From Planctomycetota bacterium (GTDB lineage Bacteria; Planctomycetota; UBA1135): a stretch of 64,000 nt of DNA. The stretch lies in assembly GCA_026421205.1 (NCBI GenBank), contig JAPKBM010000008.1:4055-68054 (forward strand), written 5' to 3'. A program made the translations under genes and the position numbers. The notes under the pieces were generated by a model. That model searched no databases. It had not been told where the DNA came from and saw only the letters and a list, made by a program, of their open reading frames with translations. Shown here one piece after another: positions 3,648 to 22,344 of the stretch (within the stretch, counting starts at the first letter, position 1; each line of letters starts with the position of its first letter).

Positions 3648-5066
3648 TTATTCTTCTTCCGGTGCATCCACATCGGAAACGGCGGACTCCTCCACAGCAA
3701 CTTCTGTCGATTCACCTTCCAAAGCCTCCACCACAGCAGCCAGGACTTTTTCCGATGCAGGTCGTGGTCGGATGTGCGCGAAGTAGGGCATTTCTTGCTT
3801 GTCATAGACTACATTTCCTTCAACCACCGACCACTGGACAAAAGTGCGGTAGTCAAAGAGATCCCCATCACAAATAATGAAGTCTGCGTCTTTGCCTGGT
3901 TCAAGGGAGCCCAGCCGATCTTCCAGGCCAAGAATTTTGGCGGCGTCCAAAGTCACCGAACGTAAAGCGGCCTTCTGAGAAAGCCCACCCCGAATAGCAA
4001 AAGCAGCTTCCATCGGCAAAGTCAACAAGTCACGCCCGGCAATGCCTCCTGTGGAGATGCTCTTTTGTGAAGGAAGAATGGCAAATTCCACACCGGCTGC
4101 CCAAAGTTTCTGCGCATTTTCAATGCTCCAACCACTGGGCCGATTCAAACGGTCGTCGGCATATTGCTTTGCGCGCGGTGTCAAAACCATTCGTGCATTC
4201 ACACGTCCCAGTCTTCCCGCGCATGCCCACGCTTCACGGCCACCGAAAATAACTGACTGCATCGGGAACTCCTCCAGTAAGTCACAAATCCCTAATAGGT
4301 CTTTCAAGCTGTTCGCTGCAAAACGAGCAGTGGCCTCGCCACGCAATAAACGAAGATGATCCGAATTCACCCCCTTGGCCTCTGGTTCCTCTCCTACATC
4401 ACTTTTTATCTGTTTGTCCCTCTCCCATGCGCGCACGGCACGAATCAAATCGCGGGCCTTTGAAAAACTGTTGCGCAAACTCCGGCGTGACGCGGGAGAA
4501 GTGGAAGTCCAATTCAACTTCACCCAAGGAGATGTGGTCAGCAGCATACCGTCCAAAGAGCCGCGCGTTAACTTGGCCACGGCGTTAGAGCCATGCACGG
4601 TTGTCAAGCCCCCGGCTAAGCCCAAATCCAGCGTTAAGGAAAAAGGGTCAAAGCCGTCTCGTGCGCTGGCCCCCGACCCGCGTAGAAATCCGCTGGAATC
4701 TACGGCAATCAAACCTGGATAGACTCGCATACCGGTGGCGTCAATGATGCGGGCACCCTTCGGAATCCGCACGCGTTTTCCGACCTTCATGATTCGCCCG
4801 TTTTTCGCCAAGAGGGCTCCGCGCGCAATCATGCCATCAGTCACGGTGTAAATGTCTCCACCGACCACGGCCAAATACGGGCTCTCTTTCGGCGGAGCGA
4901 CTTCAGTGCTTTCCTCCGTCTCTACGATTTCCTCCACGGCCGCATCGGTGTCATCCGCCGAAGGCTCCGGGCTATCTTGAGCCGTAAGCCAAGGAGTTAA
5001 AAACAACAGGAAAAGAGCCGTCCACAAAAAGGAGGGCGTCGGGAGTAATTTTTTAAAATGGTTCAT
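3648..5066 (-). CDS. secreted amidohydrolase-fold paralog 9 of 9 (HxH motif lost)
   Basis: Signal-like N-terminus FLWTALFLLFLTPWLTAQ. It has NGRIMKVG...YPGLIAVDSSG where HxH is expected, and the C-terminal GSLEPGKDADFIICDGDLFD strand. ATGA overlap with the upstream gene. Confidence 0.75.
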   Translation of the reverse strand: MNHFKKLLPTPSFLWTALFLLFLTPWLTAQDSPEPSADDTDAAVEEIVETEESTEVAPPKESPYLAVVGGDIYTVTDGMIARGALLAKNGRIMKVGKRVRIPKGARIIDATGMRVYPGLIAVDSSGFLRGSGASARDGFDPFSLTLDLGLAGGLTTVHGSNAVAKLTRGSLDGMLLTTSPWVKLNWTSTSPASRRSLRNSFSKARDLIRAVRAWERDKQIKSDVGEEPEAKGVNSDHLRLLRGEATARFAANSLKDLLGICDLLEEFPMQSVIFGGREAWACAGRLGRVNARMVLTPRAKQYADDRLNRPSGWSIENAQKLWAAGVEFAILPSQKSISTGGIAGRDLLTLPMEAAFAIRGGLSQKAALRSVTLDAAKILGLEDRLGSLEPGKDADFIICDGDLFDYRTFVQWSVVEGNVVYDKQEMPYFAHIRPRPASEKVLAAVVEALEGESTEVAVEESAVSDVDAPEEE

Positions 5067-6421
5067 CGTCCTTCCTCCTGTTCTTCGAGTTCTCGGTCGT
5101 ACACCGTTTTGCCATCCTCCACGACAAGAACGACTTCGGCAAGCGGGTCCAAGGGATCTCCGCTGACGAAAATAAAGTTGGCTGCCATACCCACAACCAA
5201 GGGGCCGACCACTTCTTCTTGACCCATGGATGCGGCTGGTTCAATAGTCATGGACTTTAAGGCGATGGTCTTGTCGAGCCCCTCTCGTACCAAGTCCGCC
5301 ACGCCAACACGCCAGGAACTTAAACCGGACACGCCAGAGGAAGACGGTCGTAGGACCAACTTCTCAAGACCTGCATCCACGAGTTCTGCAGCCAGGTTGA
5401 TGTGGATTCGTGTATAGCGCGTCTGCATTGCCAACCGTGCGGGCAAGTCAATCCGTACACCCGCGGAAGCCAACTCTTCCACCACTTCGTGAAAATTGTG
5501 GCTGCTTGTGTGAGAGAGCACCAACTCCCAAGGCAGTTCACGATCTTTCAAGATGTCATTCCAGTGCACCCATTCCGCGGCATCACTGAGCCAAATTTGT
5601 GCCACCCGTTCTTTTCGAACCCAATCGACAACCGGGCTGAGCTGGGAATCAATCTTGGGCGCGGTGAATTCCTTGGGAGGCTCTTTCTCTTCTTCTTTCT
5701 GCTCTTTGTCGTTTTCCTTGGCAGCCGACGCAGAACCCTCTTTTTTTGGAGCTTCCTTTTTGGAAGCCTCTTTTTTCTCAGCCTCTGCTTTCGTTTTTTG
5801 TTTCTCAGCCCAATCTTTCCGGGCTTGTTCCCAATCCACTTTGGCCTTCTCCTCTTTTTTGATGGCCGCGTCTGCATCTTTCAAGCCATTTCGGAGAAGG
5901 TCTTTGGCACTGCGATTAGAATCTAGCGTAAGTTTCAGATGTAAATCCTGCACCACTGCTTCGGGAACCGGGGCATGTGCCGTCATACGAATTACCGACG
6001 TTCGCCCAGGGATTCCAGTACCCGGAGGGTCAATCCCTGCAAGCAACACACCATGGGACAAATAATCCTTCAGCAACTCGTTGTCAGCTAACCAAACGGT
6101 GTCTATGCCGACGTACTTTCCATTCCGACCTCGACCTCGCGTGGCACCCTGGAATGCCGATGCATGAGAAACTGTAAATGGCGGCATCACCGTCCAGCCT
6201 TGTCCACGGAAGTCTTTCACCACAGCACCATCTGGAATGATCACGGTCTTCCCGATGCGTTCAATCACACCGTCTCTTACTAAGATGACCGCTTTTTTCA
6301 AAGCGTCTCCATCTAAAGTCTCCACATGGTCCACACGGTAAGCCGTCAAACGGCCCAGGGGCTCTCGCTCTGTTTCTTGTGCAAAAACAGGGAGGACAAA
6401 AAGGAAAAGAGGTGCAATCAT
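5063..6421 (-). CDS. secreted amidohydrolase-fold paralog 8 of 9 (HxH lost; K/E-rich insert)
   Basis: Signal MIAPLFLFVLPVFAQE, then DGVIERIG, C-terminal VGMAANFIFVSGDPLDP, and a ~70-aa Lys/Glu-rich insert (KKEEKAKVDWEQARKDWAEKQK...). It starts 1 nt after the upstream stop. Confidence 0.7.
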   Translation of the reverse strand: MIAPLFLFVLPVFAQETEREPLGRLTAYRVDHVETLDGDALKKAVILVRDGVIERIGKTVIIPDGAVVKDFRGQGWTVMPPFTVSHASAFQGATRGRGRNGKYVGIDTVWLADNELLKDYLSHGVLLAGIDPPGTGIPGRTSVIRMTAHAPVPEAVVQDLHLKLTLDSNRSAKDLLRNGLKDADAAIKKEEKAKVDWEQARKDWAEKQKTKAEAEKKEASKKEAPKKEGSASAAKENDKEQKEEEKEPPKEFTAPKIDSQLSPVVDWVRKERVAQIWLSDAAEWVHWNDILKDRELPWELVLSHTSSHNFHEVVEELASAGVRIDLPARLAMQTRYTRIHINLAAELVDAGLEKLVLRPSSSGVSGLSSWRVGVADLVREGLDKTIALKSMTIEPAASMGQEEVVGPLVVGMAANFIFVSGDPLDPLAEVVLVVEDGKTVYDRELEEQEEGR

Positions 6422-6422
6422 T

Positions 6423-7598
6423 TCAGTAAAGCTGTTTTTGATTTTTATCGTAAGCTACTTGACCATCTACGAAAACTATTTGAACAGGTGTCCGCGGGTC
6501 TAAAGGCTGTCCGGCTTTCACAACAATGTCTGCGTCAAGGCCAGGAAGAAGTCGGCCGATGCGATGGTCGGCCAAAATTTGTTGTGCGGGCCGGACATTG
6601 ATGGACTCTAAGGCCATCCAAGTAGAACACCCCAAGCGCTCAGCAAGAGTTGCTTGATAGATAAATTCTTCTTGCGGAATCACGGGGGCATCGGTTTGAA
6701 TAGAAATGTCTGTATTCCCTCGAGACTCGAAAGCCTCCACCAAGCCCTGAATGCGTGCCATTTGATTAAAGGAGAACTCAAAATTTCGGGGCCCTATATT
6801 CAAGGCGGCACCCGTTTCCGCAATCGCCTCACCTGCCATATAACCGTGGAAGGATGCGTGACTCACCACAACCGGAACTTGCGCCTCTAACTGAAACATG
6901 CGTACCGTGCCGTAGGTGTCCCTAGCTCCTGCAGTATGCACCAAGTAAGGATATTTCCCCAAAGCGATGCCTGCGATACTGGAGACATCTGGGCGAGTGG
7001 CCAAAGAGCCTGATTGGGCTACGCCGTCGGCCTGATCCAACCACCAGCGCAACATCCACCACATCCCCATGCGCGTGCCCCCCAAATCATTCGCGCGTTC
7101 TGGGTTGTAACCCTGCGCAACTTTCACGGAACCCGGGTCACGAAGAATGGACTCACGGACAGAATCCGTCGGCTTTATTTTCACTAAACTTCCGGCACCT
7201 GAAATATTGCTGCCTGAGCCGGGAATCGCGTTCACCGTCGTCACCCCCGATGCCGATGCCGTCTGATACAAGCGATTATTGGGGCGCACCGTATCTAATA
7301 CGCGCAACTCTGGATTATTAGGGTGGACCGAATCGTTGAGGTCTTCCCACCCACCAGTTTGCGTATGTGAATGTAAATCCACTCCGCCAGGAAAAGCGAA
7401 AGAGTTTGGAAACTCCCAATGCGCACACTCTTCGGGCAATGAAATATCTGCTTGCCTACCAATCTCAGAAATGCGTCCGTCCTTCATCACAATCCGTGCA
7501 TTATGAATGACTTGGCGATTTTCCATGGTAAGGGCTACCCCCACATCCAGCACATGAACTTGCTGCATCAACCAGGAGGTGACGAGAATTGAAAACAT
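6423..7598 (-). CDS. amidohydrolase (metal-dependent hydrolase), paralog 7 of 9, HxH retained
   Basis: Contains DGRISEIG...FPGGVDLHSHT (HxH), later VVVSHASFHGY and QTDAPVIPQEE, and the C-terminal GRLLPGLDADIVVKAGQPLDP strand. TAATG overlap upstream. Confidence 0.8.
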   Translation of the reverse strand: MFSILVTSWLMQQVHVLDVGVALTMENRQVIHNARIVMKDGRISEIGRQADISLPEECAHWEFPNSFAFPGGVDLHSHTQTGGWEDLNDSVHPNNPELRVLDTVRPNNRLYQTASASGVTTVNAIPGSGSNISGAGSLVKIKPTDSVRESILRDPGSVKVAQGYNPERANDLGGTRMGMWWMLRWWLDQADGVAQSGSLATRPDVSSIAGIALGKYPYLVHTAGARDTYGTVRMFQLEAQVPVVVSHASFHGYMAGEAIAETGAALNIGPRNFEFSFNQMARIQGLVEAFESRGNTDISIQTDAPVIPQEEFIYQATLAERLGCSTWMALESINVRPAQQILADHRIGRLLPGLDADIVVKAGQPLDPRTPVQIVFVDGQVAYDKNQKQLY

Positions 7599-8788
7599 TA
7601 AAACCGACGCCCATCCTCCGCGTCATAAACTTCTTCCCCGCGCACCCAAACACGCAGTACATGAGAACGCGGGTCCACCGGATCTCCGGTCCACGCAACG
7701 AGATCCGCGTCAAGTCCTACTTTCAACAAGCCCGCGATGTCATCCATATTCAATGCATCGGCAGCATGAGCGGTCAGCCCCTTCAAGGCTGCTTCTGCAT
7801 CGCCAGCCCCTAAGCGCACACCCATGGCGGCTTGAAAAGGAAGTTCTTCTTGGGGAATCACAGGGGCATCGGTGTTGTACCCCAAAATAAGTCCTTCGTG
7901 CTCAAGCCAGCCGTCGGCACAACCTTGAATTCTGGAACGAGAACGGTCAAACCAAAATTGGCGCGGACCGTTCATCACAGGAACATCGTATTGAACGGCC
8001 AAAGCACCATTTTTGTAGCCATCGAACGTACCGTGGTCAATGAACGCGTCCAATCCTAAATCTCGCTTCAACATCGTAATGGTTGTCATGACCACTTGAA
8101 ATATTTGCGTGTGCACACTGACGGGTACTGTTTGATCTGATAATTTGGCGAAGTCAGCCCACTTCGGATTCCACTCTGCTACCCCAGCCTTGTAATCCTT
8201 GGCCCAGCCTAAACCTTGTTCAAAAGTATGGCGCGTATTCCAGTTCATCAAGGCACGACCCACGCCATAGCCCCAACGTTCCGGATTTCCGGCCTGCGCC
8301 ACCTTTAAAGAACCGGGGGATCGCACCGTCATCTCTTCCACCGTTTCGCCACTGGTTTTCACGAGCATGCCGAAGCCACCCATGTTGGAGCCGGACCCAG
8401 GGATAAATAAGGCCGACGTAATTCCACCCGCCACGGCATCCAAAAGCATGGGGTTTCGCGGTTCCAAGACTTCGGCTGTGTGCAGTTCAGGGTTTGCCAA
8501 ATACACCGTGTCATTTAAGTCCCGAAGACTTCCAGCAACATGATTGTGCGGTTCCACCATTCCAGGAACTAGCCAAACAGCACCTAAATCCGTGATGGGG
8601 ATCTGGTTGGTCAAGGGTGCCTCGCGGGCCGATCCCACCCAAATGATTTTTCCATTTTGCACGAGGACTAAACCATTGTTAATCATTCCGTCTTCGGTTG
8701 CGGTGTACACTTTGGCCGCTTTCACAGCCCACGTGTCTCCCTCCTGTGGCATCAGTGCACCAAACAGTAGAAAAGCGGTCAACATCAT
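7598..8788 (-). CDS. amidohydrolase (metal-dependent hydrolase), paralog 6 of 9, HxH retained
   Basis: Contains NGKIIWVG...VPGMVEPHNHV (HxH), IDHGTFDGY, NTDAPVIPQEE and the C-terminal GLLKVGLDADLVAWTGDPVDP strand, with a short hydrophobic N-terminus. ATGA overlap upstream. Confidence 0.8.
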   Translation of the reverse strand: MMLTAFLLFGALMPQEGDTWAVKAAKVYTATEDGMINNGLVLVQNGKIIWVGSAREAPLTNQIPITDLGAVWLVPGMVEPHNHVAGSLRDLNDTVYLANPELHTAEVLEPRNPMLLDAVAGGITSALFIPGSGSNMGGFGMLVKTSGETVEEMTVRSPGSLKVAQAGNPERWGYGVGRALMNWNTRHTFEQGLGWAKDYKAGVAEWNPKWADFAKLSDQTVPVSVHTQIFQVVMTTITMLKRDLGLDAFIDHGTFDGYKNGALAVQYDVPVMNGPRQFWFDRSRSRIQGCADGWLEHEGLILGYNTDAPVIPQEELPFQAAMGVRLGAGDAEAALKGLTAHAADALNMDDIAGLLKVGLDADLVAWTGDPVDPRSHVLRVWVRGEEVYDAEDGRRF

Positions 8789-11589
8789 GGAGCCACCACC
8801 TCTTCGCCCTGCGCGAAGACATGCAAAATACGTGTGGACAATGCAAAGGGGGTTCCACTATGCACCACGACATCGGCATCCATTCCCGAAGTCAAACTCC
8901 CGACTTGATGCGAAAGCCCCAACATGGTGGCCGCACCGTAAGTCACGGATTGCAAGGCAACCTCAACACCCAATCCGTGGCGCACTGCCATAGCTAAGAC
9001 TTCCGGTAAGGAACCAGCCTGCGTCTCCCACGATTGACTTTGAATTGCTGTGGGAATCCCGTGTTGATGAAAAACTGCCGCAGGAACATAGTCCACGTTT
9101 TCCTTTCTCTGGATCAAGTCTGAGTCCACAACAACGCCCGCTTGGAATTCCTTCAGAAGAGCAATGGCTTCTATTGTGGGCGAAAGACCTTCTAGATGCA
9201 CCGGGATTTTCTCACGCGCGAAATTTTGCAAGACCGTCCGCGCCTCATCCACACGAGAAACACGAACGACAGCGACCCCTCGGCCTTCTAATAAAGCGCG
9301 CATCCCTTCAAGTCGTGGGTCTTTCTCCGGCTCAGCAGGGCCGTCCTCTTTCTTCTTCCGCTTTTTCCGAACCGGCGCGGCACTAGCCTCTTCGATCTCC
9401 GTGCGATTCATTTCAAAATCTACCGCACCAATTCCCTCGAGTTCCACGTGAACCGCCATGTGATCAGGGCCATCAATTTCCCCGCGGATTACTACATCCC
9501 CCATTTCCGTTGGAATGGAAAAAGTAATCGTCTTGGAGGCTGCATCCCATTCCCCCTCTAGCTCAGCTTCCTCTTCGTCCGGGGCCATCGGAGAACTAAA
9601 TACACCAATCACTGTATTGCCGTCATGGTAAAGCCTCGCGGTTAAAGGCACCGGCTCCGGGATCATTTCATGCTCAATGACACCCTCCCAAACTCCATTC
9701 AAGGGGTCCGTGTCCTTCTCCTCTTTCTCCTCCACGTCCTCTTCCACCACATCTTCCTTTTCGTCTACATTTTTTTCCGGGGCTGCGCCCTGAGCAAGTC
9801 GTTTTCGTAAATCATTCTCTTCCTGCCGACGGGTGTCCAAAGTTTTTTGAGCGTTTTCCTTTTCCCACTTGGCGCGCTCATCACGCCACTTGGTCCACTT
9901 TTCTGCATACTTTTTACCGCGCTTCAAAGAAGATTGCACTTTCTCCGCCAGGTCCGCCCGATTGGTCCGACCATAATCAAAGCGAACCACGTGATGGTCC
10001 TTCACCCAGGCATCCTTTGGCAAAACTGCGCCCGTCTTGACGGCAAAGTACTGAGCACCCGTGTCTAAACCACGAGAAGGGCCAACCACGGCCGTCGTCA
10101 CTCCGCCAGCTGCCATAGTACGCCATGCAGTATGAAAACGTGCGTTGACTCCAAGTAAGCCCAATAGCGCAGAAGGGTCTGCACTACTTCCAACCTTGTA
10201 ATGATTGCCTGCATCTACAAAGCCCGGAGTCATATGGGCGTCAGAACCAGCATCTCTTACTTCGGCACCGGCAGGATGAGGCACGACCTTTCCTGCAGCC
10301 ACAATCTTCCCATTTTGAATCAGGACTTCCGCACCACCCGTGATGGGCGCCCCCAAGCCGGTCCATAAAGTACCCGCACGAAGAACCGTGCCTCCTTTCA
10401 TGCGTTCCGGCCGTTGCCAAACAGATTGTCCATCAATGAAAACACGATGCACGCTATTTGCTGAATCGAGCAGGGCACCATCCATCACAACAAAGTCGGC
10501 ATCCTGACCAGGAAGCAAAGTCCCTACCGAATTTTGTACGCCAAGGACGCGTGCTGCACGAGAAGTGATTCGATTCAAAACAGTCGCCTCAGACTTTTCA
10601 TTCCTTGGTGACCTCAAACTTGCCAAGGAAGCTTCCCACAACCAAGTCCACCGTGCGGCGGAACCAGGAACCACAACATCCCCGAGATAAGGCAGGGAGT
10701 CATCCCCTCGAGAAGAAGGAGGACCAAAACTCATCCTAAGCGGGGTTTGCACAATGAGAGAGGTGACTTCGGCGGGCAAAGGAAGAGTAGAATCCAAGTC
10801 CTTTGATGTTTCTAAAATCAACGGCATGCCCCACTCCTTAGCAAGGTCCGTAGCAACCCGGATTCCGGCAACGCTATCCACAACGATGCGCAAGGAAGCC
10901 TTCGTTCGAATGGCTTCTGCAAAGGCCATGGAATGAGGGTCCGTGGCCCCCGAAAGAGCCAATTGCGCACTTTCCCTTAGGGCCATCGCCGCGCCCGCCA
11001 AAGAGTCGGCGGCTTGAGGCGTAGCAGGACGGATCGGGTTTTCCGATGTCGGCGGTACCGGTGGGCGGAAGAAAGAGGGGGGCGAGAAAGCGGAACTTTC
11101 TAAGGAAACCCGCAAATCGCTCGTTTTTCGGAGTACGCGTCGAGAGCCCGCCGTTTTCACAACGGCACCCCGCCCGCCCACCAAGCGATTTCTATCAGGA
11201 GAAAGGTAAACCGTGGTGATGCCTCTCTCCAATGCCTTGTTGAGGTCTTCAAAGGGAGAATAGTCATCCCATGCCCGCCGGTGCGCGCCCAAAGCGTGAT
11301 CCCCTTGATTCCCCGCACCGGTCAACGGCGCATCTGCGGCAATCAAACCAGGAATGACAATCTTTTCCCCAAAGTCCACGACTTCAACAAAAGGAGGGAG
11401 TGCTTCTTCGTCTTCGACCCCGCCAACTACCTTGCCATCTTGGACAAGAAGCCAACCGTTTTCTAAAACGCCCCCCCCATAAAGGTGGATCTCTTTGGCA
11501 TGGAAAGCCACCAAGTCTTCTTGCGCCTGTGCCGACGTCATCGGCACGGTAGAAAGAAGTGCAGCCAGAAAAGGAAAGCTCATTTTCAT
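8785..11589 (-). CDS. secreted double amidohydrolase-fold protein, paralog 5 of 9 (two modules, HxH lost in both; charged and beta-rich inserts)
   Basis: Signal MKMSFPFLAALLSTVPMTSAQA. Module 1 has PGLIAADAP...GTLLPGQDADFVVMDGALLD. Module 2 has NGKIVAAG...TPGFVDAGNHY...GSLTSGMDADVVVHSGTPF. A K/E/W-rich insert and an extra domain lie between them. Confidence 0.75.
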   Translation of the reverse strand: MKMSFPFLAALLSTVPMTSAQAQEDLVAFHAKEIHLYGGGVLENGWLLVQDGKVVGGVEDEEALPPFVEVVDFGEKIVIPGLIAADAPLTGAGNQGDHALGAHRRAWDDYSPFEDLNKALERGITTVYLSPDRNRLVGGRGAVVKTAGSRRVLRKTSDLRVSLESSAFSPPSFFRPPVPPTSENPIRPATPQAADSLAGAAMALRESAQLALSGATDPHSMAFAEAIRTKASLRIVVDSVAGIRVATDLAKEWGMPLILETSKDLDSTLPLPAEVTSLIVQTPLRMSFGPPSSRGDDSLPYLGDVVVPGSAARWTWLWEASLASLRSPRNEKSEATVLNRITSRAARVLGVQNSVGTLLPGQDADFVVMDGALLDSANSVHRVFIDGQSVWQRPERMKGGTVLRAGTLWTGLGAPITGGAEVLIQNGKIVAAGKVVPHPAGAEVRDAGSDAHMTPGFVDAGNHYKVGSSADPSALLGLLGVNARFHTAWRTMAAGGVTTAVVGPSRGLDTGAQYFAVKTGAVLPKDAWVKDHHVVRFDYGRTNRADLAEKVQSSLKRGKKYAEKWTKWRDERAKWEKENAQKTLDTRRQEENDLRKRLAQGAAPEKNVDEKEDVVEEDVEEKEEKDTDPLNGVWEGVIEHEMIPEPVPLTARLYHDGNTVIGVFSSPMAPDEEEAELEGEWDAASKTITFSIPTEMGDVVIRGEIDGPDHMAVHVELEGIGAVDFEMNRTEIEEASAAPVRKKRKKKEDGPAEPEKDPRLEGMRALLEGRGVAVVRVSRVDEARTVLQNFAREKIPVHLEGLSPTIEAIALLKEFQAGVVVDSDLIQRKENVDYVPAAVFHQHGIPTAIQSQSWETQAGSLPEVLAMAVRHGLGVEVALQSVTYGAATMLGLSHQVGSLTSGMDADVVVHSGTPFALSTRILHVFAQGEEVVAP

Positions 11590-12962
11590 CGGCTCTGCCC
11601 CTTAAGAAGACGTTGCAAACGCTCGTCGGTATTTCGATCGTAGGCCTTGGAACCTCGAATCCAAACTTGCAGTACTTTACTTTGAATATCAAGGGGATCT
11701 CCGTCCATCAAAACAAAAGTTCCGTCCGCATTGACCTTTAAGGCGCCCACTTGATCTTCCATACCCCACATGGCGGCGGGGTTGGTGGTGACGGCTGCCA
11801 GAGCAGCTGCGCGCGGCAGGCCCTCTCGGATGCATGTCGCTGCTTGATAACCTAAGCGGTGTGGCCCCATCCTGCTCTTTTCACTTCCTAATGAGAAGGC
11901 GAGACCTGCTTCATGGAAAACTGTGGGAACGAACGTCCGTACTTCTTCCCAAGTCACGGGGTCTCGTTCCACATGCCACATACTCCCCGTCAGGGTGACA
12001 GGACGACCAGATTCCATGAGGAGGTCGGCGGCCTTCCATGCGGATGCAGTCACGACAAAAATAATGTGGTCTAATAAACCCAAGTCCTCAGCCCATGTTT
12101 TACCGTGAAAAACATCCGTCGCCGTAGGACACCAAAGCCAAAGGCGTTCATCCCCATTGAGTATGTCAACGAGCCCACGTTGGGTTTCATCCACGTCCTC
12201 TTCCGACAACAAGTCTTTTCCTGGAAAGTCCTCGCCGAAGCGGACATAGCCGCCCGAAGAATCCCACATGTCCCCATCTTCTTCGGAATCCTCCCCCGCT
12301 TCATCTGCTTTGAGGGCGTCAGCCTTGACGGCACCATGATGCAAGATATCTTGAGCCTTCGTACGGAGGTCACGATTCAATTTGCTCACGGCTTCTCTCA
12401 ACTCCGCCATCTGCGCACTTCGGCTCCAACCGGATTTCGGACCAATGGCGATTTTCATTCCCATGGAATCATCCAAAGTCATCGCTTCCATGGTCATTCC
12501 AGCCGGAGCTACAACACGACCACGGCCGCCAATCACACAGTTTGCACCTGGAATAATTCCAAGAGCCGTTGTTCCCAAACGAAGCTCATCTTCGAAAAAG
12601 TAAGAAACCGGGTCAATCGAATCTTTCACATCAAGAAACGGCGCTACGGGAACATTTTCGTTGGCTCTGTCCAAACCGCCTGAGGTATGCGTTTCTGCGA
12701 ACCCTGGAAAAAGGGTGGCATCGGGATACTCCTTTAATAAAACATCAAAAGGAATTTCCAGGTCTGCACCGCCAATTGCGGTGATTCGGCCCTGCTCCAC
12801 GACAACGGTCCCAGGAGAATGCGTAGAGCCGTCCATGGTGATGAGGGTGCCGACGCGGAAAGCAACCGACCCCTCTTGCGCGGAACTAAATCCGGTCAGA
12901 GAAAGGAGAAGAACAGGAAAAAGAAGGAAGGAAGAGCGCATTTTTTGATGTTGAGCTGACAT
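11586..12962 (-). CDS. secreted amidohydrolase-fold paralog 4 of 9 (HxH degenerate: ETHTS)
   Basis: Signal SSFLLFPVLLLSLTGFSSAQ, then QGRITAIG...FPGFAETHTSGG, an acidic insert (DEAGEDSEEDGD), and C-terminal GALKVNADGTFVLMDGDPLD. TAATG overlap upstream. Confidence 0.75.
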   Translation of the reverse strand: MSAQHQKMRSSFLLFPVLLLSLTGFSSAQEGSVAFRVGTLITMDGSTHSPGTVVVEQGRITAIGGADLEIPFDVLLKEYPDATLFPGFAETHTSGGLDRANENVPVAPFLDVKDSIDPVSYFFEDELRLGTTALGIIPGANCVIGGRGRVVAPAGMTMEAMTLDDSMGMKIAIGPKSGWSRSAQMAELREAVSKLNRDLRTKAQDILHHGAVKADALKADEAGEDSEEDGDMWDSSGGYVRFGEDFPGKDLLSEEDVDETQRGLVDILNGDERLWLWCPTATDVFHGKTWAEDLGLLDHIIFVVTASAWKAADLLMESGRPVTLTGSMWHVERDPVTWEEVRTFVPTVFHEAGLAFSLGSEKSRMGPHRLGYQAATCIREGLPRAAALAAVTTNPAAMWGMEDQVGALKVNADGTFVLMDGDPLDIQSKVLQVWIRGSKAYDRNTDERLQRLLKGQSR

Positions 12963-14407
12963 TAACGAAGGTCAGCCGCAAGACGGCCGTCCACGAAGAC
13001 AAGGAGAGGACGAGAAGTTCCGACAAGAGGGTTGCCTGACCAAAGAACAAGGTCGGCATCAAAACCGGCAGCCACTTGGCCGACGTGTTTCGCTTGGCCA
13101 CACAGCATTGCCGCCTTGGAGGTCACCATGACGAGGGCTTGTTCTGGACTGAGTCCCCACTGCACTGCTGTGCGTGCCTGGTGAATTAGACTCGCTTCCG
13201 AAAGTGCGGAATCGTGGGCTTCGGCAGAGCCAATGGCACAAGAAACACCCGCTTTCCAAAGGAGTGCCGGTGTAGCCGGCGTAGCTTTTTCACCTTCCGC
13301 TTGGCGACCAAATGTAGAGCCGGCAGCAGCGTCATAACGCGGGGTTGTCGTTGCCAAAAGTAGATCCTGTGCAAAACCCGTGATTTTCACGACATGCGCA
13401 TCGGGCGCGTGATCTTCATGCCCCGGCTCCTCGAGGCCCTCACAACAAACCGCAGGGGGATTCGCTAGCAAACGAAGCTCAGCTAACGTAGGACCAGTGG
13501 CCACTGCGCGGGAAACTTCATCATAGGCGGGACCCACAACGACCGGAACACCCGCAGCAGCAAGAAGTTCTTTTGCGCGCCAAGATTCACTCCCTTCTTC
13601 AATAATCATGTGAGGAATTTGAAACTCATCCTTAAGCCGAAGCGCTGTTTGCACATCGTTATTACGACGAGCCTGAATGCGTAAAGGCAAGCGGCCGTCC
13701 AAGACCTGAAGCATGATGTCTAAATCTGCGTTGGCGTCGGCCAAACCGTTCCCCCGCTCCTCTTTATAAGAAAGTGCGCGGTAGAACTGCCGACGAATTT
13801 CCCAAACCGTCCCCATACGCGTTGTTGGACGCCTAGAACGAAAATCAGATGGCTTCCCCCAAGGGGAGTGATTGCCTTTTGAAGCATCCAATCCCAAAGA
13901 GATCTTTAAAGCTGCGGCAGCATTCACAACTTTGGCAGCTGACAATGCTGGGCGATAGAGATTGAACGGGTCCCCTCCTGATGTTTTCACAAAAGCCGCA
14001 AGCCCTCCGAAAACGTTGGTGGAGTCCGGAGACAGAAATGCAGACGTCACTCCATTTTCAACCGCGTGAAGAAACCCCGATGCGTCGAGGTCGGCGGTCA
14101 AGGACAGCGCATGCGCCGCGCCACTCTCTTTCGTTTCATCCACGGTGTAACCCGCAGTGTGCACTCCTAAAAAAGAGTAAGCGTCCACAAGTCCGGGAGT
14201 CAGATGTGCTTCGGGAAGGTAGTACGTGCCTTCCGGTTGTTGAGCATCTTTGGAAAACCCATGCGACACGCCCTCCGTCACGGATTGAATCTTCCCGTTC
14301 TCAAGCGAGACCACCGCATGGCTAAGAACTTGTCCATTACCAAGGTGTAAAGTATCTGCAAGGATGGTGATGTCTTGAACGAAAAGCGGAAGAAGCAGAG
14401 CAAACAT
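12962..14407 (-). CDS. secreted amidohydrolase-fold paralog 3 of 9 (HxH lost)
   Basis: The start is taken at ATG 14407 (MFALLLPLFVQ), which overlaps the upstream TAA by 1 nt. The track ORF runs to 14713 through the upstream gene. Motifs are NGKIQSV...TPGLVDAYSF and C-terminal GQVAAGFDADLVLWSGNPL. Confidence 0.7.
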   Translation of the reverse strand: MFALLLPLFVQDITILADTLHLGNGQVLSHAVVSLENGKIQSVTEGVSHGFSKDAQQPEGTYYLPEAHLTPGLVDAYSFLGVHTAGYTVDETKESGAAHALSLTADLDASGFLHAVENGVTSAFLSPDSTNVFGGLAAFVKTSGGDPFNLYRPALSAAKVVNAAAALKISLGLDASKGNHSPWGKPSDFRSRRPTTRMGTVWEIRRQFYRALSYKEERGNGLADANADLDIMLQVLDGRLPLRIQARRNNDVQTALRLKDEFQIPHMIIEEGSESWRAKELLAAAGVPVVVGPAYDEVSRAVATGPTLAELRLLANPPAVCCEGLEEPGHEDHAPDAHVVKITGFAQDLLLATTTPRYDAAAGSTFGRQAEGEKATPATPALLWKAGVSCAIGSAEAHDSALSEASLIHQARTAVQWGLSPEQALVMVTSKAAMLCGQAKHVGQVAAGFDADLVLWSGNPLVGTSRPLLVFVDGRLAADLR

Positions 14408-15459
14408 TATTTTTCCTCCAAGGGGTTCGCACGATAAACCGTCATTCCTGAGACCATGGTGGCCTTCAGTCTTGATGTGGCATCGAGGGGATGACCGGAC
14501 CAAAGAACCAAATCCGCATAAGCACCTGGAGCAATGACCCCAATGCCCGAAGCCCCTACAAGGGCCGCGGCATGTGTGGTGATGGATTGCATCGCAAAGG
14601 CCGGATTTTTTGTGGCGCGGGACAATTTCATGGCAGCAAGTCGCAACGTAAGTGGAGAACCTTGTGCAGTGCCAAATGCAAATTGAATGTTTGCCTTCTT
14701 GAGCCGACGCCATGTTTCTGCGGTGCGAGCGTCAAGAAAACTAAAGGCTGTGGGTAGTCCGACGAGTTGGTTCGCCAAGGCACCTCCAAAATCAAAAATA
14801 CCATCCATGGCTACAAAATGATGCGCATGGTCATCTTGCAAGGAACGCCAGCCTTGCAGTGCTTCCCCCGTGTCAATGAAATTTAAAAAATGAGTGCTCT
14901 TTGGTATTACGGGCAATTCCTTTTGGAGAATCTCCAGAGCTCCCGGCAAACTATCCGGACCCAATCGACGATCTGCGACACGATCTGGTAACAAAGACAA
15001 GGAAGCGCGAGACTGCTTGACTCGGGCCTCTGACTGACCACTTCCCCAAAGAGAGCCCCAGCCGGACAAAACATTCGTCGGCCTAGGCATCAGGTGGAAA
15101 CTGGTGACCCCCGCACTAAGACGGTCTTCATCAAGGTCCCTTGCCTCCAGAGAGCGGGCGTCGGCGGTGCGCAACGAAGAAGTCACGGGGCGATAATCTT
15201 CACGAGGGCCAAGGAAAGCGAATGCATCTACGAAACCGGGCGACAAAACGCCGGAAAGTTCTGCAATGCGGATGCCGTCGGGCAATTCAAGGTCAGCACC
15301 CACTTGGATAATGCGGTCACCTTGGATGAGCACCTCTTGTCCTTCGAGCAAGGTGCCATCAGGTTGAATGATTGCGGTTGGCCGCAACAACCATGGGCTG
15401 GGACGAGGCGTATCTTGTAAGAAAATCGCCGCGGGAAAAAGAAGAAGAGAAAGGAGCAT
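14407..15459 (-). CDS. secreted amidohydrolase-fold paralog 2 of 9 (HxH lost)
   Basis: The start is taken at ATG 15459 (MLLSLLLFPAAIFLQ), 4 nt after the upstream stop. The track ORF extends to 15645. Motifs are GDRIIQVG...SPGFVDAFAF and C-terminal GVIAPGAYADLVLWSGHPLD. Confidence 0.7.
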   Translation of the reverse strand: MLLSLLLFPAAIFLQDTPRPSPWLLRPTAIIQPDGTLLEGQEVLIQGDRIIQVGADLELPDGIRIAELSGVLSPGFVDAFAFLGPREDYRPVTSSLRTADARSLEARDLDEDRLSAGVTSFHLMPRPTNVLSGWGSLWGSGQSEARVKQSRASLSLLPDRVADRRLGPDSLPGALEILQKELPVIPKSTHFLNFIDTGEALQGWRSLQDDHAHHFVAMDGIFDFGGALANQLVGLPTAFSFLDARTAETWRRLKKANIQFAFGTAQGSPLTLRLAAMKLSRATKNPAFAMQSITTHAAALVGASGIGVIAPGAYADLVLWSGHPLDATSRLKATMVSGMTVYRANPLEEK

Positions 15460-15463
15460 TGGA

Positions 15464-16846
15464 TTAACGGGGTTTGTGCGCACGCACGGCGGCCGAGGCA
15501 TCGAAAGGCGAGGCCCCTTCAAAGAGAAGGAGAGACCCGCTTTGGCCAACACGCACGCGGCCGAAATCTTCTGAAAGGCGCAGAATGCCAGCAGGAATGG
15601 TGGTGAGCGCACTCCACACTTCTTCAGAATCCGCGCCCTGCGCAATTAACTGACCTGCCATGAAAAGCAAATCTTTGTGGAGGCCACCGCTACTGAGGGC
15701 CACGGTGACCCCGTGATCTTCCAGAGTCATCCAGCGAGACAGCATGTCCTGCTCTGGGAAGCTTCGGCTCTCATCTGTGGACAGAGATAGAACAACGGGG
15801 ATTTGCGCGTCGGCGAGTTCGGACGCCAATTGATGAGCATCGTCACCCCCCACCAGGAACAGGCTCAGGCCAAACTCTTTCTTCAAAGCGATGGCCTCTT
15901 GAATGGCCAAGAAACTTTGAGCCTCCAGCCGCACGAGAGACTTGCCGTCCATCGCAGCAAGCACATCATCTCGGGCCGACTTGTTTTGCGGCTTTTTAGG
16001 CGGTTTTGGGCGAGTGGGAAGCTTCTCCTCTTTTTTACCCTTTGACTCCTGGCCAGCTGTTGACTCCTTTTTTCCTTCCTCCTTTTTATCCAAATACTCT
16101 TGGAGTTCCTTTTCGTACTTTTCTAATTTCTCATTGTACTTTTCCAACTTCCCATCGTATTCATCCCACGAGTCTCGCCAAGCTTGCGCATCAGAGAAAA
16201 TCTCGCGAAAACCTTCCGCCGTAGCGTGCACGCTTACGGCATCGCCAGGCAAAGATAACTCCAAAACCTCGGCGCCCTCCGCATGAAGAAGATTCTGCAC
16301 ATTGAAAGATGCGCTGACACCCAACCCGCGTTGCATTCCACCCGAAGAAAAGGAAAGGTAGGTCAAAGCGACACCGGCATCACGAACCCCAAGGATTTGC
16401 GAAACTAATTGCTGATCTCGTGCGTCGGCCGTGCCCAGCAAAAGATTGTCTTTCATCCGACGGGAACTGACTGCATGCCGATCTCCCCCTTGAAGGTCCT
16501 TGCCCAAGCCGGACCACAAGTCCACCATGCCCGCAGCTAGAGTTCCGGACACTTTAAGGATTCTTGGCGTAGATCCACCCATCCCAAACATTCCTTTTTT
16601 CTCCTCAGGGGCACGCTGAGAAACACGGGTAATGACCCCCTTGGTCAGCGTGACGTAGGCCGGAGAAATCTGTTGGCCGGGCGCAATCCATGCGGCGTCG
16701 GCATGAATGGTGTAACTCCTTTGGTAGCCTGCGTCCTGGAAATCCTGGGCGGAAAGCGGGGACGCAAACAGAAGGAGGGAGAGAAGAGCGGTAAGACGGG
16801 GGGGAGGGTTGAAGCGCAAGTGGTGCTTGGGGGGATTGGGGGTCAT
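15464..16846 (-). CDS. secreted amidohydrolase-fold paralog 1 of 9 (HxH lost; K/E-rich insert)
   Basis: ATG at 16846 (MTPNPPKHH...LTALLSLLLFASPLSAQ); an alternative GTG lies at 16864. It has KGVITRV...AAGMVDLWSG, the K/E-rich insert AQAWRDSWDEYDGKLEKYNEKLEKYEKEL, and a C-terminal GRVRVGQSGSLLLFEG strand. Confidence 0.65.
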   Translation of the reverse strand: MTPNPPKHHLRFNPPPRLTALLSLLLFASPLSAQDFQDAGYQRSYTIHADAAWIAPGQQISPAYVTLTKGVITRVSQRAPEEKKGMFGMGGSTPRILKVSGTLAAGMVDLWSGLGKDLQGGDRHAVSSRRMKDNLLLGTADARDQQLVSQILGVRDAGVALTYLSFSSGGMQRGLGVSASFNVQNLLHAEGAEVLELSLPGDAVSVHATAEGFREIFSDAQAWRDSWDEYDGKLEKYNEKLEKYEKELQEYLDKKEEGKKESTAGQESKGKKEEKLPTRPKPPKKPQNKSARDDVLAAMDGKSLVRLEAQSFLAIQEAIALKKEFGLSLFLVGGDDAHQLASELADAQIPVVLSLSTDESRSFPEQDMLSRWMTLEDHGVTVALSSGGLHKDLLFMAGQLIAQGADSEEVWSALTTIPAGILRLSEDFGRVRVGQSGSLLLFEGASPFDASAAVRAHKPR

Positions 16847-16898
16847 GCAATTTACGAAGGACACCCCTCTGTGTTCGACTCTTTTCTAGACTAACCCC

Positions 16899-17690
16899 AT
16901 GAGTTTGGCAGAAACTGCTGTCCACCCCACCGCCGTGATTTACCCAGGGGCCGAGTTGGGCCAAGGGGTTGAAGTGGGTCCCTATTGCATTGTGGAGTCC
17001 GGCGCAGAGATCGCCGATGGGTGCCGCCTTTTGCCACATGCTCAGGTTCTTGGCCGGGTTATTATGGGGGAGAATTGTGTGGTTGGTAGTAGTTCGGTTA
17101 TTGGAGGTGAACCGCAGGACACAAGTTACGGCGGGGAACGGACAAAAGTGATCCTAGGAAAAGATTGTCGCCTTTATGATCATGTGACCGTCCATCGAGC
17201 CACCGGTGAGGGGGAAACACGCTTAGGTGAAGGTGTTTTGATGATGGCAGGAAGCCATATCGGCCATAATGCTTCCGTGGAACAAGGTGTTGTCCTTGTA
17301 AACAGTGCTGCTGTCGGGGGTCATGCCACCGTCGGTGAAAAAGCTTTGCTTTCACAGGGCTCCGCCATTCACCAATTTGGAGTCGTCGGCCGTCTGAGTC
17401 TCTTAGGAGGGGCCTGCATGGCCACGAAAGACGTCCCTCCCTTTTCCGTGGTCACCGGTTCCTACCCTGTTCGTTGGCGGGGCGTGAATACCATCGGTCT
17501 GAAACGGGCTGGGATTTCATCAGAAGACCGCACCGCCATTCGTCGCGTGCTCCATGCCATTTTTCACAAAGGCGAAAGTACGCCGAAAGTAGCCCGCGAC
17601 TACCTCGACGACCCCTGCACGCTGGTGGCGGAACTCGCCACCTTCATCCTCAACACCCCCCGCGGGATTTGCGCAGGACCAAGATCATGA
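16899..17690 (+). CDS. lpxA: UDP-N-acetylglucosamine O-acyltransferase
   Basis: Left-handed beta-helix hexapeptide repeats plus a C-terminal helical domain: VHPTAVIYPGAELGQGVEVGPYCIV...GSHIGHNASV...VNTIGLKRAG. Confidence 0.85.
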   Translation: MSLAETAVHPTAVIYPGAELGQGVEVGPYCIVESGAEIADGCRLLPHAQVLGRVIMGENCVVGSSSVIGGEPQDTSYGGERTKVILGKDCRLYDHVTVHRATGEGETRLGEGVLMMAGSHIGHNASVEQGVVLVNSAAVGGHATVGEKALLSQGSAIHQFGVVGRLSLLGGACMATKDVPPFSVVTGSYPVRWRGVNTIGLKRAGISSEDRTAIRRVLHAIFHKGESTPKVARDYLDDPCTLVAELATFILNTPRGICAGPRS

Positions 17691-19645: not shown

Positions 19646-19731
19646 TTTCTCCCTTTTTAAATCCTTAAGGTAAAATTCAGTCTCTGACCTCGGAATTGCC
19701 GATAAGTGCTTGCAGCCATCGGCCTCGCCGC

Positions 19732-22344
19732 ATGTCCATCCTCCGCCCACCTCTCCAACGCCTCCACGTTGCGCCTTTCGTCCTAGCACTTGCTGTGGTC
19801 GGCGCACCCTCTTTGATGGGGCAGGATTTCCAAAACATAACGCCGACGGCGGTCCCCTTTATGGAAAACCCAGGCTTTGCAGGAGCCGAGGTTGACTGGG
19901 TGGCGCAAGGTTCCAACCGCACCGTGACTTTTGGAAAAAACGGCGTGCAAATTCTGCAAGCACTTCCATCGGAAGATGAGGAAAACACCACTCCATGGCA
20001 TGTCATCTCATGGACTTTTCCGGGCCAGACGGGGCAGGTGAACTTCCGGGCGGAGGATCCCCTTCCTGGTCAGGTCCATTCTTACTTGGGCTCCGGCCCG
20101 CACTGGAAAATTGCGCGCCAAACATACCGCCGTCTTGTCGCTGAACAAATTTGGCCCGGCATTGACTTACAGTTTGACAGTGCAAGTAGTTCTCTGAAGT
20201 ATCTTTTTCACGTGGACGTGAGTGCAAACCCCCAAGATATCAGCATGCATTTTGATGGATTGGATGCACTTTATGTTGCCGAAGATGGAAGTTTAAAAAT
20301 GACGTCGGCGGCAGGCGTTTTGTCCGACCCGGCTCCTTTGGCCTGGCAAGAAACAACCGATGGCCAACGAATGATTTCCGTTCATTGGAGTGTCAAGCCA
20401 GACAAACAAACGGCGCAATTGATTGTGGGTGATTATGACCCCACACTTCCGCTTTGGGTAGATCCTGAGATGTTGATTTACTGTGGTTTCATCGGCGGAA
20501 CCATGGATGAAGAATCTCGCGGCATTGGCGTGGATGACGCGGGGAACATTTATGTGACGGGTTTAACAGAATCTACCAACCTTCCCGTGCTCAATGCGGA
20601 GCAAAACACTTCGGGCGGTGGAGAATCCGATGTTTGGGTGGCCAAAGTGGACCCTCTCGGCAATCTTCTTTACCTCACCTATCTAGGTGGCACTGGAAAA
20701 GAGTTGCCGTATTCCTTGACCGCCGACGGCTCCGGCAATGCTTACGTTGCGGGAGGTTCCACGTCATCCGATTGGCCCAGTGTTGGAGGCGGTCCGGAGA
20801 TTACTGGTGCTTCCCATGGAAGTTTGGATGGCTTTGTTGCAAAACTAGATCCTTCCGGTCTATTGATTTACTCCGGCATGTTTGGTGGTCTTGAATTTGA
20901 CAGCATCCGGGGCAATACCGTTTCGGCCGACGGCTCTCACTATGTCATTGGCCGGTCCTATACGGAAGATGGCTCTTTTCCTGTTCATAACGGCCCAAGC
21001 TTGAGCCATTCCGGTGGACAAAGTGATATTTTCGTGGCAAAGATTTCACCAGACGGAAGTACTTTAGAGTACAGCGGGTTTTTGGGTGGCGATAAAATTG
21101 ATTATGGACGAGACATTGCTGTGGATGACCGCGGTTTTGCTTACGTGACCGGCTGGACCAACTCCGACGAAAACACTTTCCCGGTCACCGTCGGCCCAGA
21201 CCTCACTTACAACGGCGGTCATAAAGATTTTGGACTTGGGTGGGAGCAATACGGGGACGCTTTCATTGCCAAAATCCTTCCTGACGGAACGGGTTACGTT
21301 TATTGTGGCTACATCGGCGGCGCACGGACGGATGGGGGCTTCGGCGTGCATGTAGATTCATCCGGCGCCGTTTATTTGGCCGGACACACGACGTCGGATA
21401 ATTCCTCCGACCCTGTGGATGGATTATTCCCAGCAAAAATCGGGCCCAGCTTGGTTTATCGTGGAGATGGCGTGAATGAAGACCTGCAGCCTTACGGAGA
21501 CGCATTTGTCGCCAAAGTATCCCGCGATGGCACGGAATTGGAGTTTTGCGGCTATGTCGGCGGTCAGCGCAGTGATCGTGCATGGCGACTTGGCCGGGAT
21601 TCCTTCGGTAATCTTTATCTAGTGGGCAACACACGCTCTCGGCAAAGTGAAGGCTTTCCTCACCAGTCCATTGGCCCGCAAATTTCTTGGGGTGGCAGTG
21701 GTGATGGATTTTTGTCCATGGTCTCCCCCGACGGCCGGAGAATTTTATACAGCACCTACTTCGGCGGAAGTGAGGATGACCTTATTCGTGACGTGGCCAT
21801 CGCCGATGACGGCACCGTGTATGTCACAGGCTGGACAGAATCTAATTTAGATTTCCCTTTGGTGAACGGCCCCTCCACAACCCACCAAGGACTGAAGGAT
21901 GCCTTTGTTGCCCGTATACCCCCCTACCACGTGTTGTTACGTGGTGGAACGGCTGTGGATCCCGCAACCGAAGAACATGCGGATGTCCTCCTTTTAGATG
22001 GAGATCCAGGAGCAGATTGGCAACGCGAAGTAACGGTCGTGGCCAATACCACCCTCACGCTTTCCATTGACGCCACTTCTTGGTTAGCTGGCCAGGCGCT
22101 CACACTCTATCAATGGCCCGCCGATGCCGGCCGACGCTGGGCCAGCCAAACGGAAACAGGTTTTGCGGCTGACTTAGGTCACGCGGCATTCCCACTGGGT
22201 GCTTCCACCCTGGTCACCTCCGGTACAGGTTCTGTCACGGTCAGTTTGTCGGCTGGGGATTGGACTTTACAAGCGGTCATCACGGACCCAGCAAACCCCC
22301 TTGGAAAGAGCTTGTCCAACGCCATCGTGGTTCACGCGCAGTAA
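19732..22344 (+). CDS. secreted SBBP-type beta-propeller repeat protein
   Basis: ATG 19732 gives a signal VAPFVLALAVVGAPSLMGQ. It carries many repeats of the form GG..D.G..IAVD..GN.YVTG.T.S..FP. Confidence 0.7.
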   Translation: MSILRPPLQRLHVAPFVLALAVVGAPSLMGQDFQNITPTAVPFMENPGFAGAEVDWVAQGSNRTVTFGKNGVQILQALPSEDEENTTPWHVISWTFPGQTGQVNFRAEDPLPGQVHSYLGSGPHWKIARQTYRRLVAEQIWPGIDLQFDSASSSLKYLFHVDVSANPQDISMHFDGLDALYVAEDGSLKMTSAAGVLSDPAPLAWQETTDGQRMISVHWSVKPDKQTAQLIVGDYDPTLPLWVDPEMLIYCGFIGGTMDEESRGIGVDDAGNIYVTGLTESTNLPVLNAEQNTSGGGESDVWVAKVDPLGNLLYLTYLGGTGKELPYSLTADGSGNAYVAGGSTSSDWPSVGGGPEITGASHGSLDGFVAKLDPSGLLIYSGMFGGLEFDSIRGNTVSADGSHYVIGRSYTEDGSFPVHNGPSLSHSGGQSDIFVAKISPDGSTLEYSGFLGGDKIDYGRDIAVDDRGFAYVTGWTNSDENTFPVTVGPDLTYNGGHKDFGLGWEQYGDAFIAKILPDGTGYVYCGYIGGARTDGGFGVHVDSSGAVYLAGHTTSDNSSDPVDGLFPAKIGPSLVYRGDGVNEDLQPYGDAFVAKVSRDGTELEFCGYVGGQRSDRAWRLGRDSFGNLYLVGNTRSRQSEGFPHQSIGPQISWGGSGDGFLSMVSPDGRRILYSTYFGGSEDDLIRDVAIADDGTVYVTGWTESNLDFPLVNGPSTTHQGLKDAFVARIPPYHVLLRGGTAVDPATEEHADVLLLDGDPGADWQREVTVVANTTLTLSIDATSWLAGQALTLYQWPADAGRRWASQTETGFAADLGHAAFPLGASTLVTSGTGSVTVSLSAGDWTLQAVITDPANPLGKSLSNAIVVHAQ

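Follow-up and report, generated by a model that had tools for sequence, protein, structure and literature searches.

Gene array and shared fold

The stretch of DNA analysed here (the window) comprises 64,000 nucleotides of contig JAPKBM010000008.1 from a Planctomycetota bacterium (GenBank assembly GCA_026421205.1, lineage UBA1135). Positions 3648-16864 of the window are occupied by nine contiguous minus-strand genes, which together encode ten full-length amidohydrolase-fold modules. A complete set of metal ligands was found in two of these modules; the other eight are referred to as pseudo-modules. The genes were labelled G9 to G1 in the order of their transcription, and the two modules of the G5 protein were labelled G5a and G5b:

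15464..16864, minus strand: G9, pseudo-module containing a long, charged helical insert
14407..15459, minus strand: G8, compact pseudo-module of 350 amino acids (aa)
12962..14407, minus strand: G7, pseudo-module of 481 aa; the public gene call has the same length
11586..12962, minus strand: G6, pseudo-module of 458 aa
8785..11589, minus strand: G5, protein of 934 aa with two modules (G5a and G5b)
10399..11589, minus strand: G5a, N-terminal pseudo-module of the fusion protein G5
8785..10398, minus strand: G5b, C-terminal pseudo-module of G5
7598..8788, minus strand: G4, catalytic subunit as judged from its ligand set, 396 aa
6423..7598, minus strand: G3, second catalytic paralog as judged from its ligand set, 391 aa
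5063..6421, minus strand: G2, pseudo-module with an insert rich in lysine and glutamate (K/E-rich)
3648..5066, minus strand: G1, pseudo-module with acidic low-complexity tails at both the N and the C terminus

An earlier sequence-only reading of the window had reported nine open reading frames (ORFs), and all of them were found at these coordinates. The G9 ORF starts with GTG at 16864, and an alternative ATG is located at 16846. The stop-to-stop ORFs of G8 and G7 run upstream into the preceding gene; the two genes actually begin with the ATG at 15459 and the ATG at 14407, respectively. Public gene calls on 100% identical contigs match the lengths of G7 to G3 (481, 458, 934, 396, and 391 aa).

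The ATG of G8 (15459) sits 4 nt past the stop codon of G9 (TAATCCAATG). TAATG overlaps are present at the junctions G8/G7, G7/G6, and G4/G3, ATGA overlaps at G6/G5, G5/G4, and G2/G1, and the G3/G2 junction reads TGAAATG. Every intergenic gap inside the array is thus 4 nt or shorter, and the junction sequences agree with those described in the sequence-only reading. The 4-nt overlap recurs in orthologous arrays (G5-to-G4 in 43 of 65, G6-to-G5 in 27 of 64, and G2-to-G1 in 27 of 63), and the 1-nt overlaps are likewise recurrent. When the array was scanned for promoter-like and terminator-like sequences, no matches above shuffled expectation were obtained within it. The array is best read as a single translationally coupled operon.

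For comparison of the modules, profiles were built from 31-69 orthologs each. Every pair of modules, including those with G9, was aligned by hhalign with a probability of 99.5-100% across 300-400 aligned columns. Pfam Amidohydro_1 and Amidohydro_3, the families that the sequence-only reading had proposed for a check, gave matches in G1-G8, mainly over the C-terminal 100 residues, whereas G9 was barely detected (E=0.003). All ten modules are members of the amidohydrolase superfamily, with homology far beyond chance.

Structural models were obtained with AlphaFold2 (AF2). The model of G5 (predicted local distance difference test score (pLDDT) 85, predicted template modelling score (pTM) 0.64, from a 51-sequence alignment) contains two barrel-plus-sandwich modules. 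Within G5b, a 56-residue K/E-rich helix (residues 544-599, nt 9793-9960) is followed by an acidic disordered linker and by an eight-strand all-beta insert in the barrel (residues 632-732, nt 9394-9696). This beta insert starts with G-x-W-x-G and is retained in distant orthologs; it gave zero matches against Pfam, even at E<=10. The model of G9, for which only the paralogs of the window were used, has a pLDDT of 70.8 and shows a 62-residue helix. Long K/E-rich inserts between strands beta4 and beta5 are common to G9, G6, G5b, and G2, and helices of 56-62 residues were modelled in G5b and G9.

In Foldseek searches, the best match of both models was 3OOQ, a structural-genomics entry from Thermotoga maritima (G5: E 9e-22, template modelling (TM) score 0.72, next amidohydrolase 3e-10; G9: E 1e-21, TM score 0.69, next amidohydrolase 4e-10). 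The sequence of G4 matched the same entry over residues 38-391 with E 1.3e-38, the next entry being found at 4.7e-9. G4, G5, and G9 are members of a 3OOQ-like subfamily that is well separated from other amidohydrolases. Assignment to curated enzyme families was rejected. The best scores were 65.8 (G5; 60.4 for G4) against a cut-off of 500 for the Xaa-Pro dipeptidase NF051886, and 49.5 (G5; 47.2 for G4) against a cut-off of 298 for the imidazolonepropionase HutI (TIGR01224); G4 lies far below every curated equivalog cut-off. The public label "imidazolonepropionase-like" is a fold-level label and nothing more.

Metal ligands, conserved order and signal-like N-termini

The metal ligands of subtype I amidohydrolases are HxH, a carboxylated Lys, two His residues, and an Asp (PMC11342369). 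The positions were scored on strands beta1 (HxH), beta4 (carboxylated Lys), beta5 and beta6 (one His each), and beta8 (Asp). Loss of ligands was checked by multiple alignment, by hhalign mapping on the 31-69 orthologs per module, and by counting conserved His, Cys, Asp, Glu, and Lys residues independently of any alignment.

All six ligands are present in G4 (H81, H83, K162, H226, H252, and D307) and are invariant in 69 of 69 orthologs. The ligands of G3 (H76, H78, K159, H221, H247, and D303) are invariant in 33 of 33 orthologs; the two proteins are 33% identical. By hhalign mapping, the maximum found in any ortholog of the eight other modules was three of six. Two "G1" orthologs with all six ligands (loci L069 and L076) were rejected as misassigned G4-like ORFs on short contigs. 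The alignment-independent count over orthologs gave no His conserved at >=85% in G9, G8, G7, G5a, and G5b, one each in G6, G2, and G1, and four in G4 and G3. The sequence-only reading had itself raised the possibility of a complete but shifted metal site; this is excluded because conserved His residues are absent or single in the degenerate modules. The same reading had placed the metal site in 7598..8788 and 6423..7598 only and had listed the strings that follow the PGxxD strand in the ten modules (VEPHNHV, VDLHSHT, DLWSG, DAFAF, DAYSF, ETHTS, AADAP, DAGNH, VSHAS, and AVDSS); the location was borne out, and the strings are exact. Its view that the array does not represent nine independent metallohydrolases also stands, since eight modules are devoid of a metal site in every lineage examined.

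The pseudo-modules differ in what occupies the former site. None of the six ligand positions is conserved in G9, and none of the ligands is present in 59 of 66 orthologs of G5a. G6, the best-conserved pseudo-module (57-64% identity in the close tier), keeps H92 and K170 alone. In G2, H286 is invariant, and the ligand positions vary across lineages. G7 contains no conserved His; K168, Q245, E271, and E/D396 are found at its former ligand positions in 77-89% of orthologs, and this polar set could represent a remodelled binding site instead of a dead one. The residues at the ligand positions of G9, G8, G5a, G5b, and G1 vary freely among orthologs. G4 and G3 are best read as binuclear-metal amide hydrolases, and the other eight modules as ancient pseudoenzymes.

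A different explanation for the ligand pattern is that the degenerate modules are enzymes with metal-independent or alternative-ligand chemistry, the array then encoding nine hydrolases of a multi-step catabolic pathway. LigI is a member of the amidohydrolase superfamily that works without metal, and polar sets are conserved in G7 (K/Q/E/E-D) and in G6 (H/K and several acidic residues). However, the five modules without a conserved His have very few conserved charged residues, ligand-position residues drift freely in the five modules named above, and genes of the pathway type (transporters, regulators) were not consistently linked to the array in the loci examined. We regard this explanation as improbable.

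For the distribution of the array, one genome per species was scanned with two G4 motifs (NTD[AS]PV[VIL]P[QE] and K[VI]AQAGNPE). At least 578 genomes carry a G4 relative. The best 80 of these were examined, all of which are labelled Planctomycetota (including Phycisphaerae, Planctomycetia, and UBA1135/UBA1146) or "uncultured bacterium"; one closed chromosome is among them. Public data contain an abundance of G4 relatives, the named ones coming from metagenome-assembled genomes (MAGs) of Planctomycetota, plus one bin labelled Myxococcota. The ORFs of the loci were assigned by module-specific hidden Markov models, and arrays were counted in 45 non-redundant, species-level loci that extend about 10 kb to either side.

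The order G9, G8, G7, G6, G5a+G5b, G4, G2, G1, with further G4 copies and G3 as optional members between G4 and G2, was found in 44 of the 45 loci. The modules are therefore not scattered singly, and the conservation of the ordered array for which the sequence-only reading had proposed a search was observed. Each pseudo-gene is single-copy in the 44 arrays. The number of full-ligand genes varies (one in 21 loci, two in 18, three in 3, and four in 2), and G3 is missing from 21 of the 44 complete arrays. Three or four full-ligand paralogs stand in tandem in L070 (8427-13739), L080 (8541-13718), and L054 (10141-14090), where the eight pseudo-modules are still single-copy; the largest catalytic expansion consists of three G4-like genes and one G3-like gene. 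The total module count per lineage ranges from 9 to 12. The statement that the system has two catalytic subunits thus applies to the window and fails as a general count, since one to four catalytic genes are present depending on the lineage.

A hydrophobic stretch was found within the first 40 residues of 78-93% of G8-G1 orthologs and of 59% of G9 orthologs, the start of G9 being uncertain; hydrophobic N-termini, as noted in the sequence-only reading, are therefore present in most orthologs of all nine products. In distant lineages these signal-like N-termini are canonical: the n-region is basic, and an AxA-like site is present. In the lineage of the window, the signal-like peptides of G8, G7, G4, G3, and G2 (from 15459, 14407, 8788, 7598, and 6421, respectively) comprise 12-17 residues, are uncharged, and end in (A/P/L/V)-Q-(D/E). 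The short peptide with the Q-(D/E) ending may serve as a signal for export or cleavage that is specific to this lineage.

Signal-like N-termini on all products and the phylum-wide occurrence of the array would also suit a mainly structural assembly, that is, an envelope or surface scaffold or lattice for which the amidohydrolase fold would have been co-opted as a structural unit and in which G4/G3 would provide no more than an accessory maturation or turnover activity. Four modules have K/E-rich helices of 56-62 residues, and the long acidic tails of G1 are of a kind typical of extended or anchoring proteins. No conserved anchoring motif was found, however, and catalysis appears central because nothing else in the array is as strictly conserved as the catalytic site of G4 and because the set of catalytic paralogs has grown to three or four in some lineages. 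Only a slim chance is assigned to a primarily structural role.

Paralog ancestry, gene fusions and flanking genes

The relationships of the modules were examined with a bootstrapped neighbour-joining tree (score-based distance, 50 replicates). Each array position forms its own clade across the phylum, with bootstrap values of 100% for G7, G6, G5b, G2, and G1, 98% for G4, 96% for G3, and 88% for G5a; the clades of G9 (56%) and G8 (50%) are weaker. The ten lineages consequently predate the divergence of the Planctomycetota classes. G4 and G3 are grouped at 100%, and 3OOQ joins this pair at 92%. A division into three subfamilies, A (G4/G3/G1), B (G8/G7/G5a), and C (G9/G6/G5b/G2), had been derived from hhalign scores and was rejected, the bootstrap values being 44% for B, 2% for C, and 0% for G4+G3+G1. 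The members of C are alike in their long helix insert.

The ratio of nonsynonymous to synonymous substitution rates (dN/dS), determined with unsaturated ortholog pairs, is 0.03-0.13 across all nine genes, which indicates strong purifying selection, and the degenerate members are at least as constrained as G4 and G3. Loss of catalytic residues would by itself be expected of decaying duplicates left over from a local gene amplification. Against such decay stand the low dN/dS everywhere, the absence of frameshifts and internal stops, orthologous groups that are older than the class divergence, and the retention of all of them in 44 of 45 loci. By these selection and conservation data the explanation is refuted, and its remaining probability is negligible.

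The G5a-G5b fusion is present in every array. G5 had been taken for a fused tandem duplication, a description that has to be withdrawn: G5a and G5b were sister groups in none of the 50 bootstrap replicates, and G5 is accordingly a fusion of two anciently diverged paralogs. A second fusion was found in two independent assemblies, in which a single ORF comprises G9, G8, and G7, arranged as in the array, with G6 and G5 coming next (L090, 728-4702, on a TARA scaffold; L092, 4759-8790, in GCA_027295725.1; 1324 or 1343 aa). These ORFs are free of Ns and internal stops. Their G8-like module has an HxH motif (PGFIDAHSH), the other ligands being gone, and this remnant suggests that the metal site was lost stepwise. 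An apparent triple-module fusion of G6 and G5 in L079 was discarded as an artefact of a run of Ns.

An exhaustive search with G6 yielded many related proteins of two or three modules, and every one examined consists of one full-ligand module and one or more degenerate partners. A family of three-module proteins (1300-1550 aa) has the arrangement degenerate/full-ligand/degenerate (P0369, P0371, P0376, P0378, P0384, P0387, P0392, P0405, P0464, and P0469). Some of these three-module proteins bear a G5b-like beta insert. For the family as a whole, one contig of 4.5 kb was seen. In the fused relatives P0369, P0380, P0395, and P0400, one full-ligand 3OOQ-like module is joined to one or two degenerate modules per polypeptide. 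They resemble the array in this combination but are not orthologous to its positions; the best scores of all their modules are weak ones, obtained with the profiles of G7, G1, or G9.

Upstream of the array, G9 and the divergent lpxA gene (16899-17690, plus strand) are only 34 nt apart, or 52 nt if G9 begins with the ATG at 16846, so that the array promoter must overlap with lpxA or with the promoter of that gene. The upstream genes for LpxA and Acs and the downstream genes for Bcp and a YbiB-like protein were considered as parts of the system and rejected; they are syntenic only in the closest lineage. A different ORF takes the place of Bcp in L003 and L004, and the flanks are unrelated in L005, L006, and L087. 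The gap of 56 nt to the Bcp gene is as given in the sequence-only reading, whose attachment of Bcp and YbiB to the array did not hold up: because the flanking genes differ between lineages, both are lineage-specific neighbours outside the conserved system.

Elsewhere in the window, an AdoCbl-II (cobalamin) riboswitch was detected at 22422-22495 (plus strand; 39.8 bits, above the gathering score), upstream of an ORF at 22511-23929 with weak beta-propeller-like DUF5074/DUF6923 matches. This ORF would be an unusual candidate gene for control by B12. A large DUF7948/SBBP beta-propeller repeat protein (19696-22344, plus strand) and a sulfatase (26703-28211, plus strand) are typical of Planctomycetota and unrelated to the array.

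Proposed complex and known systems

The closest structural relative, 3OOQ, has the six ligands and the motif K-x-A-x-G-(E/N)-N-P in common with G4. Its entry contains ten chains, and a benchmark set of complexes with 10-30 chains classes it as a dihedral homomer, which together imply a D5 homodecamer. 3OOQ is a homomer of one active subunit, whereas the array provides ten differentiated modules, eight of them without a metal site, with export-type N-termini and encoded in an operon of fixed order. More distant relatives of the COG1228 type (Cc2672, Sgx9260b/c, Sgx9355e, and the ochratoxinase AnOTA/ADH3) contain binuclear Zn bridged by a carboxylated Lys, cleave C-terminal amide bonds of dipeptides or N-acyl amino acids, and include a D4 homo-octamer, AnOTA (PMC11342369). 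These enzymes have the fold of the array modules, composite beta-sandwich included, and form large homo-oligomers; they differ from the array in giving weak, partial sequence matches only and in being homomeric, without pseudoenzyme partners.

We infer that the operon encodes an exported hetero-oligomer of 3OOQ-type modules, in which one catalytic pair is embedded among structural paralogs; the inference extends to assembly, stoichiometry, location, and substrate, and its probability is put at roughly 0.55. One mRNA would give rise to near-equimolar Sec-exported subunits. These would fold, with G4 and G3 alone taking up metal, and would assemble outside the cytoplasm (in the periplasm or at the surface). 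The hetero-oligomer would descend from a 3OOQ-like homo-oligomeric ancestor. A single dimer position would be catalytic and would hold G4/G3 or, where G3 is absent, G4/G4, and the other eight positions would be filled by non-catalytic paralogs serving as scaffold or in substrate binding or gating. G4/G3 would hydrolyse a C-N (amide) bond. By analogy with the nearest characterised relatives, a peptide or a compound resembling an N-acyl amino acid is the probable substrate.

Association of the products is favoured indirectly, by the fixed gene order, the single-copy pseudo-modules, the overlapping stops and starts, fusions of the Rosetta-stone type (G5a-G5b, G9-G8-G7, and catalytic with degenerate modules), and the oligomeric state of the solved relatives. 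The same genes could instead be co-regulated for a shared task without assembling, the degenerate modules acting as separate exported binding proteins and G4/G3 as free homo-oligomeric hydrolases. Pseudoenzymes often retain ligand binding, and G7 and G6 keep polar residues at the former active site; moreover, catalytic genes vary in number irrespective of the pseudo set, and G4-G2-G1 are split from the rest in L058 and L064. It is difficult to reconcile this explanation with strict single copy and fixed order across the phylum or with the conserved stop/start overlaps; the fusions point to physical association, and the solved relatives are obligate large oligomers. We consider separate binding proteins unlikely.

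A specific architecture for the exported hetero-oligomer can be put forward as a tentative model, about which we have considerable doubt: a ten-module pseudo-D5 hetero-decamer in the form of a pentamer of the heterodimers G9-G8, G7-G6, G5a-G5b, G4-G3, and G2-G1, with one catalytic dimer. Dedicated paralogs would have replaced the subunit at each position of an ancestral homodecamer of the 3OOQ kind. A gate or a structure for substrate handling would then be formed by the four K/E-rich helices together with the beta insert of G5b. The window contains exactly ten modules, and the number of pseudo-modules is constant at eight across lineages, that is, ten minus one dimer, which fits a pseudo-decamer of this kind.

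Several observations weigh against the proposed complex or parts of it. The module numbers are equally consistent with the eight pseudo-modules forming an octameric scaffold, and a decamer with strictly one module per position would need a G4 homodimer or alternative isoforms, since 9, 11, or 12 modules are present in some lineages. The apparent D5 state of 3OOQ is an indirect deduction from the chain count and the benchmark label. Deep branching among the pseudo-modules has bootstrap values of 2-50%, and the pairing of neighbouring genes consequently depends mainly on the fusions. The confidence of the G9 model is moderate. In the lineage of the window, the very short signal peptides have no basic n-region, and they were recognised solely by a heuristic based on hydrophobicity. 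Cultured carriers of the array were sought and none was found, the named matches being MAGs throughout. Finally, the exceptional locus L058 (9581-13988) and the shorter L064 (315-4951) contain only G4-G2-G1 together. In these two MAGs (ACE_NR_PLAN1 and ACE_PLA31) no other modules were found within 10 kb upstream; the remaining modules may be located elsewhere or may be absent.

Amidohydrolase folds without metal ligands are familiar as obligatory non-catalytic subunits of oligomers, as in PyrC' of Pseudomonas aspartate transcarbamoylase and in CRMP/DPYSL. PyrC' is a single pseudoenzyme with a non-homologous partner, unlike the eight pseudo-modules and their catalytic paralogs, and CRMPs form eukaryotic cytosolic heterotetramers without a catalytic member, unlike the exported array. 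In the beta ring of the eukaryotic 20S proteasome and in CCT/TRiC, homo-oligomeric ancestors gave rise to paralogs with fixed positions, and four of the seven beta subunits are non-catalytic. The likeness to these systems is one of logic only; they have an unrelated fold and are eukaryotic and cytosolic, and fixed positions in the array are a hypothesis. In the literature searched, including that on 3OOQ, no description was found of a phylum-wide, fixed-order operon in which eight pseudo-modules are combined with one to four catalytic paralogs, all with export-type N-termini. Both the fold and the concept of pseudoenzymes as partners were already known; the operon of this architecture was found in no published description, in line with the sequence-only reading, which had named no characterised counterpart.

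If the proposed complex is confirmed, it would be, to our knowledge, the most extreme bacterial enzyme complex made mainly of inactive paralogs of its own catalytic subunit, with eight pseudoenzyme modules assembled around one to four active ones outside the cytoplasm. It would provide a tractable prokaryotic model for the differentiation of a homo-oligomer into a hetero-oligomer with fixed positions and would show what pseudoenzymes contribute, be it scaffolding, gating, or substrate selection. Should the pseudo-D5 decamer prove true, bacteria would possess, outside the cytoplasm, an equivalent of the subunit differentiation of the proteasome and CCT. The orphan structure 3OOQ and many multi-module "amidohydrolase" proteins also gain a likely context from the array. 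It is a phylum-wide trait of the Planctomycetota, abundant marine lineages included, whose genes are labelled only "amidohydrolase family protein", and its substrate may bear on the processing of organic nitrogen by these bacteria.

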